64,000 nt of DNA from a virus (lineage: Duplodnaviria > Caudoviricetes), in IMG/VR virus record IMGVR_UViG_3300020166_000019, positions 1 through 64,000 of that record. The stretch is one strand, 5' to 3'. The translations under genes were made by a program, and so were the position numbers. Below are positions 10,747 to 61,558 of this stretch, piece by piece (positions within the stretch are counted from its first letter, which is position 1; each line of letters begins with the position of its first letter). The notes under the pieces were generated by a model that worked only from the letters and a program-made list of their open reading frames with translations, searched no databases and had not been told where the DNA came from.

Positions 10747-12816
10747 TTAGTTCAATCGATTCACTAGGTCTTTGATACTTTGTACTAATGAATCAATTCC
10801 TGCGTTATGTTGTTTTGTTTCATCACTATTAAACCATTTAGGTAGAAGTAAATAATCATCTTTCATCTTGTCGGTCAAAGCTTCTTTCATCGCCGCTGCC
10901 ATTTTATGCTTATCTTCTGCCTTCAGTATTTGGTCTTGCATTACTGCTATCGCCGCTGTAAGATCATGATCCGCTAGTTCAATTACTCTCTGTACCGCTT
11001 CTAATTGTTCCAGTTTACGTGTCTCTGTAGCGGAAACACCCATACCGCCGTTCTCTCTGGTTTGATGTTGTAGTTGGAACGAAGCAGCCACGTCCTGGCC
11101 TTCTTCAAGGGCTACGCCTGCAATCGCGGGAACCTGCATTTGAGCGGCTTGAGCTCCTCCAGCCAGTGTCATATTCGCTATTGTACCAAGACTTAATTCG
11201 AATTTTCGAACACCGCCAGTAAATGAAGATGTCGCTGCAGCTAACGTTGCAGTTTCACGTGTTAATATCAATGATGATTCTACGAACTGATTTAATGTTG
11301 TACCTAAATCAGCGGCACTCAACACTAGTGTCTCAGTTGCCTCTGAGGCAATTTTAGCAAATCTTTGTGCTTCAATCAAGGAAACTATTGCTTTATCTTC
11401 GGTCGATGTTTCTACTGTACCTTTGTCAGCGTCCGCAATTGTCTGTCCCATTGTTGCTAATTGCGTAATGAGAGCGCGTGCCATGCCTTCATCTAAATTT
11501 ACCAATGCTTTATTTTCTCTTGCAAATTGTATTATCGACTCAAATTGTGGTCCCATGTTTGCATATAATGCATTTGCAGCGTCTGGTCCTTGTGTTCTAG
11601 CAGTCTCTGCCATTTGTGTTATAAGGGGTAAAAGTTTTTGACCAATTACATCACCTTGTAACTGCTGCGCAACATCTGTCTGTAAAAAGTCCTGTGTACT
11701 ACCCGCAGCCATAGCAGTTGCAATACCTGAACCTAATATAGTCCCCTCACCACCAAAACGTCCAACCATTGCTTCTACGTTTTTTCGCATTGCAGGTTCC
11801 ATTAGTGCCAGTTGCGATGCAAATTGGTCTTGTTTTAACGTTTCAGAAATCATATTAGCAGCATCTTGCAGATTTATTTTCATAACATTTGAAGTGGAAA
11901 CCACAGTGTCCATAAAATTATCCATGCCCATGCGCATTTGGTTATCTGATAATTTATCTAATTGTCCAATTGACCGCACAGATTCCATATATGTTCCTGC
12001 AATTTCAGCAACCTCACTAAACTCCATACCAAAGCGTTGCATCATGTCAGAATTGCCTTCGCCTGATTTTGCCAAAGTATTAGCAAACTGCATCGATGCC
12101 TTAACCCCAGTAATACCGACTGCTTGAGAAAATTGTCTTGTGAAATCTGCTGCTTCGCCAAAAGTAAAATTAGAACGTGATATAGTTTTTGATAATCCTA
12201 ATAAACCCGCTCCTGCGGAATCCATGCCTGCGAGTAAACCCGATTGTCTCATTTCTTGTGCTAGATTAAACCTATTTGTGGCGCCTGCAATTGTTTTGGT
12301 ATTTGCAGTTGAAACAACGCCCACAGCCGCCGCAACACCGGCGAGCACTGTTTTAACATCGCCCCACAAAGAACCCATATCGTTTGCAGAAGATTCAATG
12401 TTAGCACGTAAATTTGCTTCGGAAGTTGTCAGTCCTTGCTTTTCATAATCTGCTATACGCTTAGTAATATCTAATTGTCTTTTAGCAGTTCTATTTGTGT
12501 CACTTAATATATTAGTTAGTGATTTAAGAAATCCAGTTTGTTTTTTATTTGTGTTAGCATTAACTGCATCAGTTGCATTACCTTTTTTTATTGTAGTTTC
12601 AGTATTTTTGATTCCATTCAATAGCTCAGAAAGTTTGGCTGCTGATCCAGCTTCATCTCTTGATAAACTAGATAATGCTTGCATTATCTGCCGATTGATA
12701 TCAGTATTACTGCTAAATCCAGAATTTAGCGCATTTAGCACCTGACGCTGTGTTGCTTCATTGCTCCATTGTGGTACACCTGGACCCAAACCTGAAATAA
12801 ATACGTCTTCTGCCAT
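10747..12816 (-). CDS. Probable tail tape-measure / baseplate hub protein
   Basis: 689 aa, helical, A/G/M/Q-rich with a hydrophobic segment; divergent from gp26/gp51-like genes; size comparable to T4 gp29. Confidence 0.55.
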   Translation of the reverse strand: MAEDVFISGLGPGVPQWSNEATQRQVLNALNSGFSSNTDINRQIMQALSSLSRDEAGSAAKLSELLNGIKNTETTIKKGNATDAVNANTNKKQTGFLKSLTNILSDTNRTAKRQLDITKRIADYEKQGLTTSEANLRANIESSANDMGSLWGDVKTVLAGVAAAVGVVSTANTKTIAGATNRFNLAQEMRQSGLLAGMDSAGAGLLGLSKTISRSNFTFGEAADFTRQFSQAVGITGVKASMQFANTLAKSGEGNSDMMQRFGMEFSEVAEIAGTYMESVRSIGQLDKLSDNQMRMGMDNFMDTVVSTSNVMKINLQDAANMISETLKQDQFASQLALMEPAMRKNVEAMVGRFGGEGTILGSGIATAMAAGSTQDFLQTDVAQQLQGDVIGQKLLPLITQMAETARTQGPDAANALYANMGPQFESIIQFARENKALVNLDEGMARALITQLATMGQTIADADKGTVETSTEDKAIVSLIEAQRFAKIASEATETLVLSAADLGTTLNQFVESSLILTRETATLAAATSSFTGGVRKFELSLGTIANMTLAGGAQAAQMQVPAIAGVALEEGQDVAASFQLQHQTRENGGMGVSATETRKLEQLEAVQRVIELADHDLTAAIAVMQDQILKAEDKHKMAAAMKEALTDKMKDDYLLLPKWFNSDETKQHNAGIDSLVQSIKDLVNRLN

Positions 12817-12920
12817 AAACTTTCTCTCTTTTTTAGTTATATTAGCATATAATAATAGTGTTAAATACTATTATAATAAATAACTTATCAAATGTATTTA
12901 TCATCAGCAAAGGAAATACA

Positions 12921-13760
12921 ATGAATCAAGAAAATCCATTAATTAAATATTTTAGAAAACCAAAAATATATGTCACATTGCCAACTGGTGGAAAATTCAA
13001 TCCAGAATTAAAAACAACATTGCTTGATGAAGTAGGAGTTAGTGCAATGTCTGCTATTGATGAAATTTCACTAAGAAATCCAGAAGCGTTACTTAATGGA
13101 GAAGCAATTAAAAGTGTTATCGAAAGTTGTGTGCCGACTGTTGGCGATCCTATGCAATTATGTAATATTGATATAGAAGCATTATTCTTGGCAATTCAAT
13201 ATGCTACATACGGAAATGATCTGACACATGAACATACTTGTGAAAACTGCAAAGAAATCGCAGAATACAAAATAGATGTTAATGAAATACTCAATCGTTT
13301 TCCTAGTGTAGACTATATAGATCCAATTCTTTTCGAAGATGTTAATATTCATATTAGACCACCAACATTAGAAAATGTAACACGTATGGCTCTAATAGAT
13401 TTAGAACAGAAAAAAATCGTACAAAATTTACAAAAAGTAGATGATGATACTCCAGACATGGATATCGCAAGTAAATTTTATACCAGTTTTAAAAAAATTG
13501 CAACATTCAATGTTGATATGCTTGCAAATGCCATTAGTAGAATCGAATCACCTGATGCTATAGTAACAGATACTATGATGATATCCGAGTTTCTACAAAA
13601 TGTACCGACAAACGTAGTACAAGAATTGAATAAAGCAATTGAAAAAATTGCTGTAAAACCCGAAAACATAAACAAAATGCAATTCAAGTGTGGAAGTTGC
13701 GATAGTGTAGATGAAGTTTATCTGGAGATTAATCCTATAAATTTTTTAGAAGCTGGCTAG
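12921..13760 (+). CDS. Baseplate hub assembly protein (gp26-like) / tail assembly chaperone
   Basis: NPLIKYFRKPKIYVTLPTGG, MSAIDEISLRNPEALLNG, DIEALFLAIQYATYG and two CxxC pairs. SD AAGGA before ATG 12921. Confidence 0.75.
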   Translation: MNQENPLIKYFRKPKIYVTLPTGGKFNPELKTTLLDEVGVSAMSAIDEISLRNPEALLNGEAIKSVIESCVPTVGDPMQLCNIDIEALFLAIQYATYGNDLTHEHTCENCKEIAEYKIDVNEILNRFPSVDYIDPILFEDVNIHIRPPTLENVTRMALIDLEQKKIVQNLQKVDDDTPDMDIASKFYTSFKKIATFNVDMLANAISRIESPDAIVTDTMMISEFLQNVPTNVVQELNKAIEKIAVKPENINKMQFKCGSCDSVDEVYLEINPINFLEAG

Positions 13761-13978
13761 TATCAGCAAGTCAGCAAGAAATACAACAAAAATCAGAAAA
13801 ATATGAAAAAGAGCTTGACAAGTTTCATAAGGATATGTTAAAGTTAACATGGTATATGAGAGGAGGAGTAAGTATATCAGAATTATATGATATGGAAGCG
13901 AATCATATATCTCATATTACATCAATCGTTGAGGGCAATTTCGAACTTAGTAAACAAGCAGGAATGCCAATACTTTAA
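13733..13978 (+). CDS. gp51-like small hub-assembly ORF, possibly expressed as a -1 frameshift extension of the upstream gene
   Basis: The -1 frame is open from 13733 to 13978 (…LTWYMRGGVSISELYDM…NFELSKQAGMPIL). First ATG is at 13835; slippery run AAATTTTTTA at 13739-13748. Confidence 0.65.
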   Translation, partial: SYKFFRSWLVSASQQEIQQKSEKYEKELDKFHKDMLKLTWYMRGGVSISELYDMEANHISHITSIVEGNFELSKQAGMPIL

Positions 13979-13998
13979 CATCTAATATAAAACTAATA

Positions 13999-14006
13999 TA
14001 TAAATA
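13999..14006 (+). promoter_or_regulatory. Late promoter TATAAATA upstream of the structured non-coding region
   Basis: Exact T4 late consensus, although in an AT-rich context. Confidence 0.5.
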
Positions 14007-14069
14007 AAATACAAAACTAATATATTTCTAACATAGGCCAATAATATGACTAATATAACGTATAACATA

Positions 14070-14475
14070 GTGGGCCTGTTGATCGGATACCCGATTCGGG
14101 ATTGAGACTGCCAGTTGAAATAATCTGTCGCCGTCAGACTAGTGGGGATGAATTCCTGCAATCTTCTCGTAAACCACATATACAAGTATTCTAATTACAA
14201 CAGCCGCATCTCTAAAGGCGTGTGGTTGACCAGCTTAATAATATAACCGATGATAGGCTACTATAGCACTATCGGCTCTGTGATGTTTTTTAATGTATAG
14301 ATATCATAAGGGTGCCGTTGGGTCGTAAGACGCAATAGTGAATGACGAGGGAATCGCCAACCGACCTCGCTGTATCTGGCAGCTAGTTCACATACATTAG
14401 GTACGAAACATAGGACAGGATACAACCTGTTTATAGTTTTTTATCAATTGTCCTGGCAACAGGGCAATTGTGGAT
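14070..14475 (+). ncRNA. Large structured non-coding RNA candidate (family unknown)
   Basis: GC-elevated with no credible ORF. At least 8 stem-loops with plus-strand G-U pairs and GNRA loops (GTC-GTAA-GAC; CAATTGTCCTG-GCAA-CAGGGCAATTG). Confidence 0.6.
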
Positions 14476-14555
14476 ACTCTTCAGGACAGAATATATAAGA
14501 TTGACTATATTATAATATATAATACCATGTAATAATATTATTAATTTAAAAAACA

Positions 14556-14619
14556 AATACTGAATTAATTGAATGAGTGAAACGAAAGAAATTAATGAAA
14601 GTATTGGGTCTTTAGACCC
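14556..14619 (+). other. Hairpin with tandem G.A mismatches and a GAA triloop, followed by a GGGTC-TTTA-GACCC hairpin
   Basis: AATACT GA ATTAATT GA AT GA GT-GAA-AC GA AA GA AATTAAT GA A AGTATT. Confidence 0.55.
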
Positions 14620-14684
14620 TTAAAGATAACTACATAATTACTATAGTTAAATAGATAGTAATGATTATATAGAAATGGACAGAT

Positions 14685-15230
14685 ATGGCTAGCAAAAGTA
14701 AAACAAAAGGAAGTAGTTATGAACGTGATGTAGCTAAATTTCTAAGTGAGAAATATGGTGATAGCTTTGTACGTGTTCCTAATAGCGGTGCATACATAGG
14801 TGGAAGTAACTTCCACCGTGCACAACATTTAAGCGAAGGCCAAGTTCGTAGTTTTAAAGGAGATATTATTCCACCTGATAATTGGAAGTACTTCAATTGT
14901 GAGTGTAAAAATTACGCAGACTTTACATTTCACCACTTTTTTATGGATAAACATATACCGATCTTAGAAGAATGGATTGACCAATGTCTTGACGTTTCCG
15001 AAGATAACGATGTTAATATCATGTTCATTAAAATTACACGTAAAGGTCAATTCGTGTGCTATCCAGAATACATGTATCAAGCAGGATTTACAACAACCAA
15101 TTATACGATATATGAAAGTGCAAAGCATGGTAAATGGATTTTTGCTGCGTGGGATCCATTTTGGCAAAAGAATACAGATAAGATTAAAGATGCGTGTGTC
15201 AATGGATTTGACAAAAATTCTTTTTATTAA
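14685..15230 (+). CDS. Holliday junction resolvase (Hjc-like PD-(D/E)xK nuclease)
   Basis: KGSSYERDVAKFL, RVPNSGA, GDIIPP and ECKNY motifs. Confidence 0.8.
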   Translation: MASKSKTKGSSYERDVAKFLSEKYGDSFVRVPNSGAYIGGSNFHRAQHLSEGQVRSFKGDIIPPDNWKYFNCECKNYADFTFHHFFMDKHIPILEEWIDQCLDVSEDNDVNIMFIKITRKGQFVCYPEYMYQAGFTTTNYTIYESAKHGKWIFAAWDPFWQKNTDKIKDACVNGFDKNSFY

Positions 15231-58971: not shown

Positions 58972-58987
58972 TATTTAATAGGACCAA

Positions 58988-59185
58988 TCATTGAATCTTC
59001 TCCACCATATCAGCCGCACGATCAAAATATTCAGAATATGTTTCTCCGTCTAAGAGAACTTGCCACTTTTCGAAAAGATCACTATCGACAAAATTCCAAT
59101 TAATTTCACCGCTTTCTTTTTTGTTTTCTGGGATATAGGTTAGATTAATCAAATCATTGCAAAACCAAGCGAATGTAGCATCCAT
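58988..59185 (-). CDS. Small hypothetical early protein
   Basis: 65-aa ORF coupled (TAATG) to the upstream ORF. Confidence 0.65.
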   Translation of the reverse strand: MDATFAWFCNDLINLTYIPENKKESGEINWNFVDSDLFEKWQVLLDGETYSEYFDRAADMVEKIQ

Positions 59186-59337
59186 TATACTGCCTCCACT
59201 TTGTAACTACGAACTTCAGCCCATTCACCACTGTTACTAAGACTAGAATGTAATGAACGTGCATTTTCATATGTCAAACCACTGACATGCATACTGTCTG
59301 CATTTTCACCAAAGTTCTTTGCTGCTACTGACCACAT
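59185..59337 (-). CDS. Small hypothetical early protein (50 aa)
   Basis: Not in the track: MWSVAAKNFGENADSMHVSGLTYENARSLHSSLSNSGEWAEVRSYKVEAV; SD TAAGGAG. Confidence 0.65.
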   Translation of the reverse strand: MWSVAAKNFGENADSMHVSGLTYENARSLHSSLSNSGEWAEVRSYKVEAV

Positions 59338-59370
59338 AATGTTCTCCTTAACTATCTAACTTATACATTC

Positions 59371-59399
59371 TTTATAGAGTGATTCGCAATGATTGTCAA
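59371..59399 (-). promoter_or_regulatory. Early sigma70 promoter with CGAATCA (GANTC) in the spacer, copy 1
   Basis: TTGACA-atcattgCGAATCActc-TATAAA. Confidence 0.8.
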
Positions 59400-59402
59400 G
59401 AT

Positions 59403-59597
59403 TTAATACAACCATTCCTGTAGTTTTTCGTAAACAAACGAATAGTCATTGTTGATTACGTCAAGTTCTTCTTCTGTGGCTTCAACGCCATTGATAACAG
59501 CAGATTCAATATACGCATCGCAGAACTTAGGATAGTCTGCCATGTCAACACCTTCAAATTCGATATCAGTTACTTTTGTGAAATCTATAATATTCAT
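59403..59597 (-). CDS. Small acidic hypothetical early protein
   Basis: 64-aa ORF directly downstream of its own promoter. Confidence 0.7.
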   Translation of the reverse strand: MNIIDFTKVTDIEFEGVDMADYPKFCDAYIESAVINGVEATEEELDVINNDYSFVYEKLQEWLY

Positions 59598-59628
59598 ATT
59601 ATCTTCTCTTTCTTTTGATTACTTAACT

Positions 59629-59657
59629 AGTATAAAGTGATTCGTTGGATATGTCAA
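59629..59657 (-). promoter_or_regulatory. Early sigma70 promoter with CGAATCA in the spacer, copy 2
   Basis: TTGACA-tatccaaCGAATCActt-TATACT. Confidence 0.8.
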
Positions 59658-59694
59658 CCAAATAAAAACTCAAAATGTTTGTTCATCTTTTTCA

Positions 59695-59856
59695 TCAATT
59701 TATTCTCACTGCTTTTATATTATCTAAACTCGCACCAGTATACTTACTCGCACTGCCGCCTATCATAAATGCTTTTTCACGTGCTGAGTATTCTGTCATT
59801 GCATATTGATATCCAAGAAAGATATTATTGTAAAATATTTGCCAAGTATAAATCAT
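59695..59856 (-). CDS. Small hypothetical early protein (53 aa)
   Basis: Not in the track: MIYTWQIFYNNIFLGYQYAMTEYSAREKAFMIGGSASKYTGASLDNIKAVRIN; SD GGTGGAG. Confidence 0.6.
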   Translation of the reverse strand: MIYTWQIFYNNIFLGYQYAMTEYSAREKAFMIGGSASKYTGASLDNIKAVRIN

Positions 59857-60907: not shown

Positions 60908-61176
60908 TGTATATATATTGTATATCAGATGGTAGCGATTTATGTAAGTTTGGTTTCAGTAATAATCCAGAAAAAAGGCTCAAAGCATTACAGACTGGAA
61001 ATGCAAAAAAATTAAATATTATTGAAACAATTTATATAGATGGTGATGTTAATAAATTAGAGAAAAAACTACACAGGGAATATTCACACCGTCGTGTACA
61101 TGGTGAATGGTTTAATGCTACTCCAGAAGAAGGAAAAGAAATGTTAACCTGGTTTGAAATACATTACATTAATTGA
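60907..61176 (+). CDS. Stand-alone GIY-YIG (T5orf172/MUG113-type) nuclease domain
   Basis: YIYCI...KFGFSNNPEKRLKALQTGN...EKKLH...GEWF. Confidence 0.8.
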   Translation: MYIYCISDGSDLCKFGFSNNPEKRLKALQTGNAKKLNIIETIYIDGDVNKLEKKLHREYSHRRVHGEWFNATPEEGKEMLTWFEIHYIN

Positions 61177-61184
61177 GAATTATT

Positions 61185-61442
61185 ATGGGAATTAAGACTA
61201 TTTTTGAAATATTAGATGCGTGGCATACTGAACGCAAGAGACACGATGACAAAACGTTTAAGCAATGGCTCAAACATGTCGGTGGATTGTGGACATCTAA
61301 AGAAGAATGGAAAAAAATAGGCAGATTAGAAACTTGGAAGCCAGTAGTTGAAGATACTGGAAAAGGTATAGGCAAAATGTTTATAATAAAAGTTCTCACT
61401 GTAATAATATTAATAATACTAGTAAATTTAGGAATAGAATAA
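61185..61442 (+). CDS. Hypothetical protein with a C-terminal TM helix
   Basis: ORF ending MFIIKVLTVIILIILVNLGIE. Confidence 0.55.
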   Translation: MGIKTIFEILDAWHTERKRHDDKTFKQWLKHVGGLWTSKEEWKKIGRLETWKPVVEDTGKGIGKMFIIKVLTVIILIILVNLGIE

Positions 61443-61444
61443 GA

Positions 61445-61558
61445 ATGAAAAAAATATGGCAAATAATAATTTATCCTTATACATTGTATAAAGAGAAAAA
61501 ACGATTAAAAAAACGTTTAGCAGAACTACGTAAGCGTGATCCGTTTATATATAAATGA
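61445..61558 (+). CDS. Small basic protein (37 aa) coupled to the carbamoyltransferase
   Basis: MKKIWQIIIYPYTLYKEKKRLKKRLAELRKRDPFIYK; ATGA overlap with the next gene. Confidence 0.6.
   Translation: MKKIWQIIIYPYTLYKEKKRLKKRLAELRKRDPFIYK

Follow-up and report, generated by a model that had tools for sequence, protein, structure and literature searches.

A conserved, structured plus-strand non-coding RNA outside Rfam in marine jumbo myophages

The DNA analysed here (hereafter, the window) is the first 64 kb (64,000 nucleotides) of the 78,433-base IMG/VR virus record IMGVR_UViG_3300020166_000019, which is ~22% complete according to CheckV. On its plus strand, positions 14065–14493 are a conserved, structured non-coding RNA whose family is absent from Rfam, an assignment we hold with near certainty. 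A reading of the window from its letters alone (the sequence-only reading) had proposed a structured RNA at 14070–14475, as either a new phage RNA or a primer at a replication origin. Homologues of the stretch place the RNA in a clade of marine jumbo myophages related to PA5oct, Atu_ph07 and the Rak2-like phages, where it forms a syntenic, single-copy cassette, and at 50 of its modelled base pairs the pairing is preserved although both partners change.

Structure and strand of the RNA

The GC content of 14065–14493 was 0.431, compared with 0.335 for the whole window, and the sequence-only reading was right that the stretch is GC-elevated and lacks a credible open reading frame (ORF). In 30 representatives, the longest stop-free run had a median of 61.5 amino acids (aa), with strand and frame varying between them, and substitutions had no three-base codon periodicity (0.209/0.202/0.224). 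The plus strand of 14060–14480 folded at −123 kcal/mol (z = −2.39; 1 of 100 shuffles was as good), whereas the minus strand folded no better than its shuffles (z = +0.32). The excess of non-canonical G·U pairs, from which a plus-strand RNA had been proposed, was recovered on the alignment of the 3′ core (alignment A3), where 73 cells were G·U and 10 were A·C, and the alifold consensus reached −77.7 on the plus strand but −47.3 on the reverse complement. Because G·U pairs are far above A·C and the reverse complement folds much worse, the RNA is the plus strand. Were the stretch the remnant of a protein gene or a GC-rich island arisen by chance, without any functional RNA, only the raised GC content would be accounted for. 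This alternative is refuted by the pairs that change on both sides, by the absence of an ORF and of codon periodicity, and by a conservation of the RNA above that of the neighbouring proteins, and we give it practically no weight.

The whole window had no match at the gathering thresholds of Rfam 15 (4227 models, including group I and II introns, RNase P, transfer-messenger RNA (tmRNA), 6S, GOLLD, ROOL, HEARO, OLE and raiA), so the RNA does not belong to a family known there. Within 13700–14750, the sole match at E ≤ 10 was a chance one to CRISPR-DR44 (E = 6.1), located outside the RNA and on the minus strand. The same library detected alpha_tmRNA (122.6 bits) and manA RNA in the genome of a relative, as a positive control. 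ARAGORN likewise found no tRNA or tmRNA gene in the window; the earlier statement that hallmarks of tmRNA, RNase P and introns are missing is thus borne out. We found no description of this RNA in the literature. Over 10,000 candidate viral RNAs from IMG/VR were reported by Fremin et al. 2023 (PMC10690425, available in part); the available text does not mention the locus, which may be listed unnamed among those candidates.

We built a secondary structure by hand from 29 diverse representatives (alignment A4, 536 columns), with 102 pairs in 17 helices and two pseudoknots (Table 1). The alignment was not fitted to the structure, and 93.5% of its cells were paired, as opposed to 34–43% when the 3′ partners were slid by one to three columns, a control that is somewhat flattering because the structure was partly derived from these same sequences. 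Both-side changes accounted for 338 cells, compared with 111 in shuffles. None of 500 shuffles reached the observed value in four of five measures, and the fifth, the number of further pair types, did not distinguish the alignment from them (75 of 500). For 20 sequences, RNAalifold predicted 79 pairs, 27 of them with compensatory changes. The 3′ core on alignment A3 behaved similarly, with 93.0% of cells paired (31–44% when slid) and both-side changes in 21 of its 39 pairs. The covariation and the better-than-shuffled fold that the sequence-only reading had put forward as checks on its proposal were therefore both obtained.

Of the nine stems listed in that reading, eight covary on the 29 homologues; the remaining one, the ACAGG/CCTGT hairpin H9, occurs only in some clades. 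Helices Pa, Pc and H2, both pseudoknots and the direct repeat R1/R2 had been missed.

Table 1 Features of the RNA cassette in the window
Feature	Position	Strand	Remarks
CTAATA array	13982–87, 13993–98, 14017–22, 14050–55	+	Four boxes directly upstream of the folded body
RNA gene	14065–14493	+	Conserved 5′ edge ACATAGTGG, folded body, H9, H10 and repeat copy R2; candidate ends
5′ domain	14070–14177	+	Pa closes over H1 and Pc; Pc encloses H2 and H3
Pa	14070–73/14174–77	+	97.4% paired; seems shifted to GCAG/CTGC in L102, by eye
H1	14081–86/14091–96	+	Both-side changes in 4 of 6 pairs
Pc	14097–14105/14162–69	+	Invariant, 99% paired
H2	14106–11/14130–35	+	Both-side changes in 3 of 5 pairs
H3	14142–48/14153–59	+	Both-side changes in 3 of 7 pairs
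H4	14201–08/14221–28	+	Both-side changes in 6 of 8 pairs; conserved apical CUCUAAAGG
Junction GACCAG	after H4	+	Conserved form GAC(Y)AG; carries the 5′ strand of pseudoknot 2 (14231–33)
H5	14247–60/14264–75	+	Inner part with both-side changes in 6 of 8 pairs, 95.7% paired; outer CCG/CGG only 59.8% paired
3′ core	14278–14399	+	H6, pseudoknot 1, GGUGCCG, H7 and three-way junction
H6	14278–84/14303–09	+	Both-side changes in 6 of 7 pairs; loop forms pseudoknot 1
Pseudoknot 1	14291–98 with 14392–99	+	8 bp
GGUGCCG	between H6 and H7	+	Invariant
H7	14318–24/14329–35	+	GNRA loop; 100% paired; both-side changes in 2 of 6 pairs, rest invariant; conserved R·G mismatch
Three-way junction	14338–43/14386–91	+	Closing stem with both-side changes in 5 of 6 pairs
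Junction hairpin a	14347–56/14362–68	+	Both-side changes in 2 of 4 pairs
Junction hairpin b	14369–73/14379–83	+	Both-side changes in 3 of 5 pairs
Pseudoknot 2	14231–33 with 14376–78	+	3′ strand in the loop of hairpin b; 3 bp, 100% paired, one covarying pair (UA 18, CG 11)
H9	14415–19/14426–30	+	ACAGG/CCTGT; clade-specific, followed by a T-rich run
Repeat copy R1	14412–22	+	In the 5′ arm and loop of H9
H10	14444–71	+	12-bp hairpin with GCAA loop; invariant 3′ arm GGGCAAUUGUG; both-side changes in 3 of 12 pairs; 89.1% paired
Repeat copy R2	14483–93	+	Direct repeat of R1; unpaired, at the edge of the AT-rich stretch
AT-rich spacer	14494–14570	+	GC 0.117; sigma-70-like site TTGACT (14501–06), 16 nucleotides, TACCAT

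An A-rich linker separates the 5′ domain from H4. Pseudoknot 1 was paired in 99% of cells on A3, where seven pairs were modelled and four of them covary via two to four pair types, and A4 agrees. Support for pseudoknot 2 is thin, its UA/CG split being largely one between clades. Because Pc and much of H10 are invariant, covariation neither supports nor refutes them. Within H10, the pair of alignment columns 489 and 514 was CG in 21 sequences and UA in 5, and the G·U pairs seen at two positions, in 12 and 18 sequences, correspond to C·A on the opposite strand. RNAalifold also paired CAUA at the 5′ end with UAUG after H10 as a closing helix; it was dropped, since covariation assigns these 3′ bases to an extension of H10 (489–514). 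A consensus scan detected a terminator-like site with a T-run at 14413–14432, corresponding to H9, in several clades. Three long unpaired runs are invariant (GGUGCCGUUG, AUCGYCAACCGAC and UCUUCUCGU.AACCAC), which fits tertiary contacts or a bound partner.

Distribution, genomic setting and expression data

The gene content of the window is T4-like and includes a portal (Portal_T4), a baseplate-hub gene (T4_baseplate, 12858–13760) and gp46/gp47-like recombination nucleases. By gp46, the nearest cultured phages were Pseudomonas phage PA5oct (51% aa identity), Atu_ph07, Phosso, SCTP-2 and Rak2-like phages. A complete relative (G001) has 342,607 bp with terminal repeats present and carries its copy of the RNA at 185.8 kb. 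The T4-like genes, the gp46 relatives and this 342.6-kb, tmRNA-bearing relative together identify the window phage as a marine jumbo myophage. At about 281.2 kb and 284.9 kb, G001 encodes an alphaproteobacterial-type permuted tmRNA and a manA RNA (L282:1167-1489 and L282:4861-5059); the tmRNA matched RF01849 at 122.6 bits and RF04321 at 114.4 bits, with the ARAGORN tag ANDNYQPEMAMAA, and the manA RNA scored 59.8 bits. Ten tRNAs are also present. The type of this tmRNA hints at an alphaproteobacterial host, and the host is probably an alphaproteobacterium.

In the window, the RNA lies in a true intergenic gap of 706 nucleotides (nt) (13979–14684), the −1 frame of the hub gene being open and conserved to 13978. 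Transcription switches strand at 12816/12858 and near 15230. The gap had been described as the only large one, which does not hold, as 58972–59768 and 60908–61554 also lack ORFs of at least 100 aa; neither of these two stretches had an Rfam match.

A search of viral contigs with the flanking proteins gave 40 loci, and the gap was matched in 31 of them, at ~70% identity over ~600 nt even where the flanking endonuclease had only 58–64% protein identity. Patterns made from invariant runs retrieved 32 (the H10-based pattern) and 98 stretches in viral contigs, and nhmmer detected the RNA in 64 of the 68 new loci among them, the other four (L077, L099, L116 and L125) being high-GC chance matches. 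In total, the RNA was found in about 95 viral contigs, with 108 full-length copies, 53 distinct sequences and 30 representatives below 93% identity. All 96 pattern matches of a metagenome scan contained it, yielding 72 distinct near-full-length sequences, and the hub gene was upstream in 82 of 84 assessable metagenome loci. The runs containing the stretch were labelled marine, estuary or marsh. A covariance model of the 3′ core (covariance model R1, distinct from repeat copy R1) found exactly one copy in each of five records, including the complete 342,607-bp genome.

Outside this clade the searches were negative. Using blastn, neither the region nor a divergent member matched any of 50,697 GenBank phage records. 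Neither nhmmer nor covariance model R1 gave a match at the syntenic PA5oct locus or at nine distant loci (L032, L033 and L035–L041). Run on the whole records of PA5oct, 121Q, Atu_ph07 and SCTP-2, the covariance model reached E = 0.54 at best and had no match in the syntenic position; for the 3′ domain, the best E in the Rak2-like phage 121Q was 1.6. A 16-base pattern scan of 596 Gb of genome contigs returned high-GC bacterial matches only, which we take as chance given an estimated few hundred such matches, and one further locus (L286) was rejected as a chance match, being GC-rich and having nothing by the covariance model.

The syntenic place in PA5oct (L262:10020-12210; 75.7–77.9 kb) is a stretch of ~2 kb between a RusA-like resolvase and the baseplate-hub gene, with tiny annotated ORFs only and long ORF-poor parts, and without detectable homology to the RNA. 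The four non-coding RNAs listed for PA5oct map away from it (PMC7318152).

The stretch was present in 20 run rows from eight studies, seven of these rows being RNA libraries, and RNA-labelled libraries of three studies contained contigs over the RNA. We examined four RNA runs, as assembled contigs with depths of 2–9. Their contigs cover the flanking genes as much as the RNA, which documents presence in RNA libraries and is not proof of a transcript; given the equal cover of the flanks, uncovered stretches such as 14425–14570 in X17 are uninformative on expression as well. The contigs of two studies stop at 14413 and 14424, at H9, a weak hint of a 3′ end.

Repeats and neighbouring genes

The cassette extends beyond the folded body. 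Three to six CTAATA boxes were found within 120 nt upstream in 28 of 28 representatives, and the sole four-box cluster in the 342.6 kb of G001 is the one upstream of the RNA. In contrast, the late box TATAAATA (13999–14006) that had been pointed out upstream of the RNA was present there in only 5 of 28 representatives. CTAATA is not a general promoter motif of the window, where it is not enriched (30 found, 21.8 expected). The boxes may belong to a 5′ leader that is transcribed, or they may serve in regulation or as promoters.

On the 3′ side, R1 and R2 form a direct repeat of 9–13 nt that flanks H10 and changes jointly across clades, with forms including GGACAG, GGGACAGA, GGAACAAGT, TGACAAG, TATCAAG, GGCAT.TAT and GGTAAT. 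The longest exact match between the two copies averaged 7.0 nt within a genome (at least 7 nt in 21 of 30), compared with 4.5 nt between genomes and 4.1 nt with shuffled R2. Three explanations of the repeat were rejected. Phased DNA sites are not indicated by a spacing of 51–77 nt without helical phasing, a genome-wide motif is not indicated by the count (15 found, 17.6 expected), and no consistent third, complementary segment was found for which R1 and R2 could compete within the RNA. The 70 nt after R2 had a mean GC content of 0.20 in the 30 representatives, as opposed to 0.42 in the RNA body. Better TTGACA-17-TATAAT sites were read from the AT-rich stretch of other clades, and the spacer could be a promoter region or, in a rival reading, a DNA unwinding element.

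About 90 nt of leader-like sequence (about 14555–14625 in the window) precede whichever nuclease gene follows, in all 30 representatives. This module ends with an invariant hairpin, AGGTC-TTTA-GACCT (14606–14619), represented in one locus (L300) by a GGAAAC/GTTTCC stem with the same loop, and may act as an operator of translation or belong to the RNA system itself. The gene itself is variable. In the window (14685–15230) it encodes a PDDEXK_15 protein of 181 aa, a type present in only 13 of 50 assessable metagenome loci, and in other clades a SegE-like GIY-YIG nuclease of 145 aa takes its place (PF19835, E = 1.5e-35; L093:5708-6145). The suggestion that an adjacent resolvase is a working partner of the RNA is not sustained by this distribution, and the slot has the look of a site for free-standing homing endonucleases next to a conserved RNA gene.

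The metagenome contig with the exchanged leader stem (L300:7000-8260) carries the whole cassette, namely five CTAATA boxes, the RNA, H10 and R2, the spacer and the leader, away from the hub gene. It follows an 1800-aa ORF and a hairpin with a T-run, and a TTGACA-17-TAGTAT promoter-like site is located upstream of the boxes. This relocation behind a promoter-like site suggests a self-contained unit with transcribed boxes.

At the end of the hub gene, the hub frame overlaps a conserved −1 ORF of 81–106 codons at CCYRYAAATTTTT(Y) in 27 of 27 assessable representatives, a site containing the heptamer A_AAT_TTT in the hub frame (13739–13745 in the window). The −1 frame of the window (13733–13978) is open for 81 codons with 52–93% aa identity, and the extension has no Pfam match. 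In most representatives, the first start codon of this frame is at least 100 nt inside the conserved part. In the hub gene of PA5oct, the corresponding position reads T_TTT_TTC and the −1 frame is open, by eye. The hub gene probably uses a programmed −1 frameshift.

Possible functions and relation to known RNAs

We consider the chances about even that the RNA is a stable, trans-acting folded molecule, either a protein-binding scaffold or decoy or a catalytic RNA. A discrete stable RNA would then act in trans as a folded particle with the pseudoknotted body as its functional core, and the three to six CUAAUA boxes on the 5′ side, together with R1 and R2 around H10, would be docking sites for a partner that co-evolves with the lineage. 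Transcription would come from upstream, by read-through of the late baseplate-hub messenger RNA in most phages and from a sigma-70-like promoter of its own in L300, and the 3′ end would be at or shortly after the H9/H10 region. This reading is favoured because of the architectural complexity, the invariant unpaired runs, the single-copy cassette, the independence from the following gene and the L300 promoter. A sponge RNA of the CsrB/RsmZ type would carry many unpaired copies of a short binding motif; the CUAAUA boxes are candidates for such copies, and their transcription is suggested by the promoter-like site of L300 only.

Several observations weigh against a trans-acting RNA. The cover in RNA libraries consists of low-depth assembled contigs with equal flanks, where DNA carry-over is possible, and the partner protein is hypothetical. 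In most phages the first box (13982) follows the stop codon of the upstream frame (13976–78) too closely for a promoter to fit between them, so a discrete gene would need processing from a longer transcript. The joint variation of R1 and R2 is not specifically explained, since a lineage-specific partner is ad hoc and no complementary RNA segment was found. The AT-rich stretch and the repeat better fit a structured primer RNA of a replication origin, following the logic of ColE1 RNA II or T4 oriF, as the sequence-only reading had also suggested. R1 would pair with the template strand at R2 behind the polymerase and seed a persistent R-loop in the 12%-GC element, and the RNA would be cut to serve as the leading-strand primer. 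Direct repeats that vary together without a complementary RNA partner are what pairing between the RNA and template DNA would require. R1 is exposed in a hairpin arm and loop and could pair at R2, the sequence permitting such pairing and no more, and R2 borders the stretch with a GC content of 0.117. Where R1 and R2 differ by transitions, R1 had G or U in 10 cases and not in 1, as wobble pairing would allow, in a crude tally that contains some alignment artefacts. The array of boxes is unique in the complete genome, as an origin-specific element would be, and the two strand switches around the RNA recall those near active T4 origins (PMC3016281, available in part).

The proposed GC-skew check gave no support to an origin: the cumulative skew in G001 has no extreme at the RNA, its local minimum being near 178 kb. 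As evidence against one this is weak, because skew mostly follows transcription, that is, gene orientation. According to the available part of PMC3016281, R-loop formation in T4 is independent of specific sequences, and a 17-helix RNA with two pseudoknots thus goes far beyond what the known phage mechanism needs. The AT-rich stretch has good sigma-70-like promoters in several clades and the conserved leader after it, and perhaps is simply a promoter region; H9 and its T-run are terminator-like and stand ahead of R2 in several clades. A primer RNA is the main rival to a trans-acting RNA, a reading that we regard as rather unlikely. In an extended form of it, to which we lend slightly less credence, giant T4-related phages would have in the cassette a replication origin defined by sequence and dependent on RNA structure. 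The body, folding during transcription, would present the R1 loop to the template strand at R2 and lock the R-loop into the adjoining AT-rich element, the invariant loops would recruit the replisome and the CTAATA array would time firing.

It is improbable, in our judgement, that the RNA acts in cis as a 3′ untranslated region or insulator of the late baseplate-hub transcript, which it would stabilise and shield from read-through at H9, holding a mobile nuclease gene under tight control together with the leader. The position directly after the hub gene, throughout the table of viral-contig loci as well as in the metagenome loci counted above, the terminator-like H9, an upstream gap in the window too short to hold a separate promoter and the homing-type nuclease behind a conserved leader with its invariant hairpin all agree with such a role. 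However, known stabilisers and insulators are far exceeded by an RNA of ~400 nt that has two pseudoknots and extended invariant runs of unpaired bases, the RNA is kept whichever nuclease follows, L300 keeps it away from the hub gene behind a promoter-like site of its own, and PA5oct has the same hub gene without a detectable copy. More doubtful still is a ribozyme that processes itself, or an RNA derived from an intron by decay or permutation, that would cut or join at R1 and R2 and so release the H10 piece or set the 3′ end. The size, pseudoknots and invariant junction bases are ribozyme-like, two similar sites could both be substrates, and a free-standing homing nuclease adjoins the RNA, as is the case for some phage introns. 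The succession of H6 5′ strand, pseudoknot 1 5′ strand, H6 3′ strand, H7 and pseudoknot 1 3′ strand also resembles the P3-P7-P3′-P8-P7′ order in the cores of group I introns. Only about 6 nt separate the 5′ strand of H6 from the pseudoknot strand, where P4–P6 would be expected. Nor was there an Rfam intron or ribozyme match at E ≤ 10 or an internal guide complementary to the repeat. No gene is interrupted, as the upstream ORF ends at the position of 13978 in all clades, ~90 nt before the RNA, and the downstream gene differs. No joined or spliced form was seen in the examined contigs, which is weak evidence because contigs drop rare forms. A template for reverse transcription of the retron, diversity-generating retroelement (DGR) or DRT type by a phage-encoded enzyme was rejected, as RVT_1 (PF00078) was absent from five of five records, including the complete genome, in a search whose controls were positive in 3 of 14 genomes.

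In kind, the RNA is most like GOLLD and ROOL, yet it is a member of neither of them nor of any Rfam family. Both are large, ornate phage or prophage RNAs with Rfam families, and they are the subject of a cryo-electron microscopy paper (10.1101/2024.12.08.627333). They share with it the intricate fold of many helices, GNRA loops and pseudoknots, the conservation above neighbouring genes and the absence of a known partner or function. Unlike them, it is smaller (~400 nt), gives no sequence or structure match at E ≤ 10, has the CTAATA array and the R1/R2 repeat, and stands in fixed synteny behind the baseplate-hub gene instead of beside tRNA genes, of which the window has none.

ColE1 RNA II pairs with its template by means of two G-runs, one in an upstream loop and the other near the origin. 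Like the RNA described here, it is a folded RNA of several hundred nt upstream of an AT-rich region, in which an exposed upstream sequence is repeated near the putative start. Its repeats are roughly 245 nt apart, as opposed to 51–77 nt for R1 and R2; it belongs to a plasmid and not a phage, no antisense regulator was seen here, and RNA II is not among the Rfam models matched. In T4, stable RNAs of 120–140 nt are encoded among tRNA genes, in a region that also has the gene of the segB homing nuclease. The likeness there is a phage RNA gene flanked by a free-standing GIY-YIG or other homing-type nuclease that differs between relatives. With T4 oriF and oriG, as described in the available part of PMC3016281, the locus shares T4-related replication and recombination genes (gp46/47-like), the promoter-to-AT-rich layout and the nearby strand switches. 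Of that layout, the AT-rich stretch is present in the window, where the upstream promoter is putative, and a consensus promoter match is present in L300. The T4 origins are about 100 bp long and, in the same partial source, need no specific RNA sequence or fold, whereas all 17 helices belong to a conserved RNA here.

The RNA is a core single-copy gene of widespread uncultured marine jumbo phages and is conserved above the neighbouring proteins. Large RNAs with so much conserved architecture are rare, the known ones being ribosomal RNAs, RNase P, group I and II introns, tmRNA, GOLLD, ROOL and OLE, and each known large structured RNA has pointed to important biology. With a clade-wide alignment, a structure backed by covariation and a working covariance model, the family can be annotated, submitted to Rfam, folded and tested for catalytic activity, multimers or bound proteins. 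Origin usage is listed as an open question in the T4 field (PMC3016281, in its available part). The co-varying repeat beside an AT-rich stretch can be mutated to test directly whether a jumbo-phage origin uses a structured primer RNA, and if that reading were true, this structure-dependent origin would be a phage counterpart of ColE1 RNA II, and a far more elaborate one.

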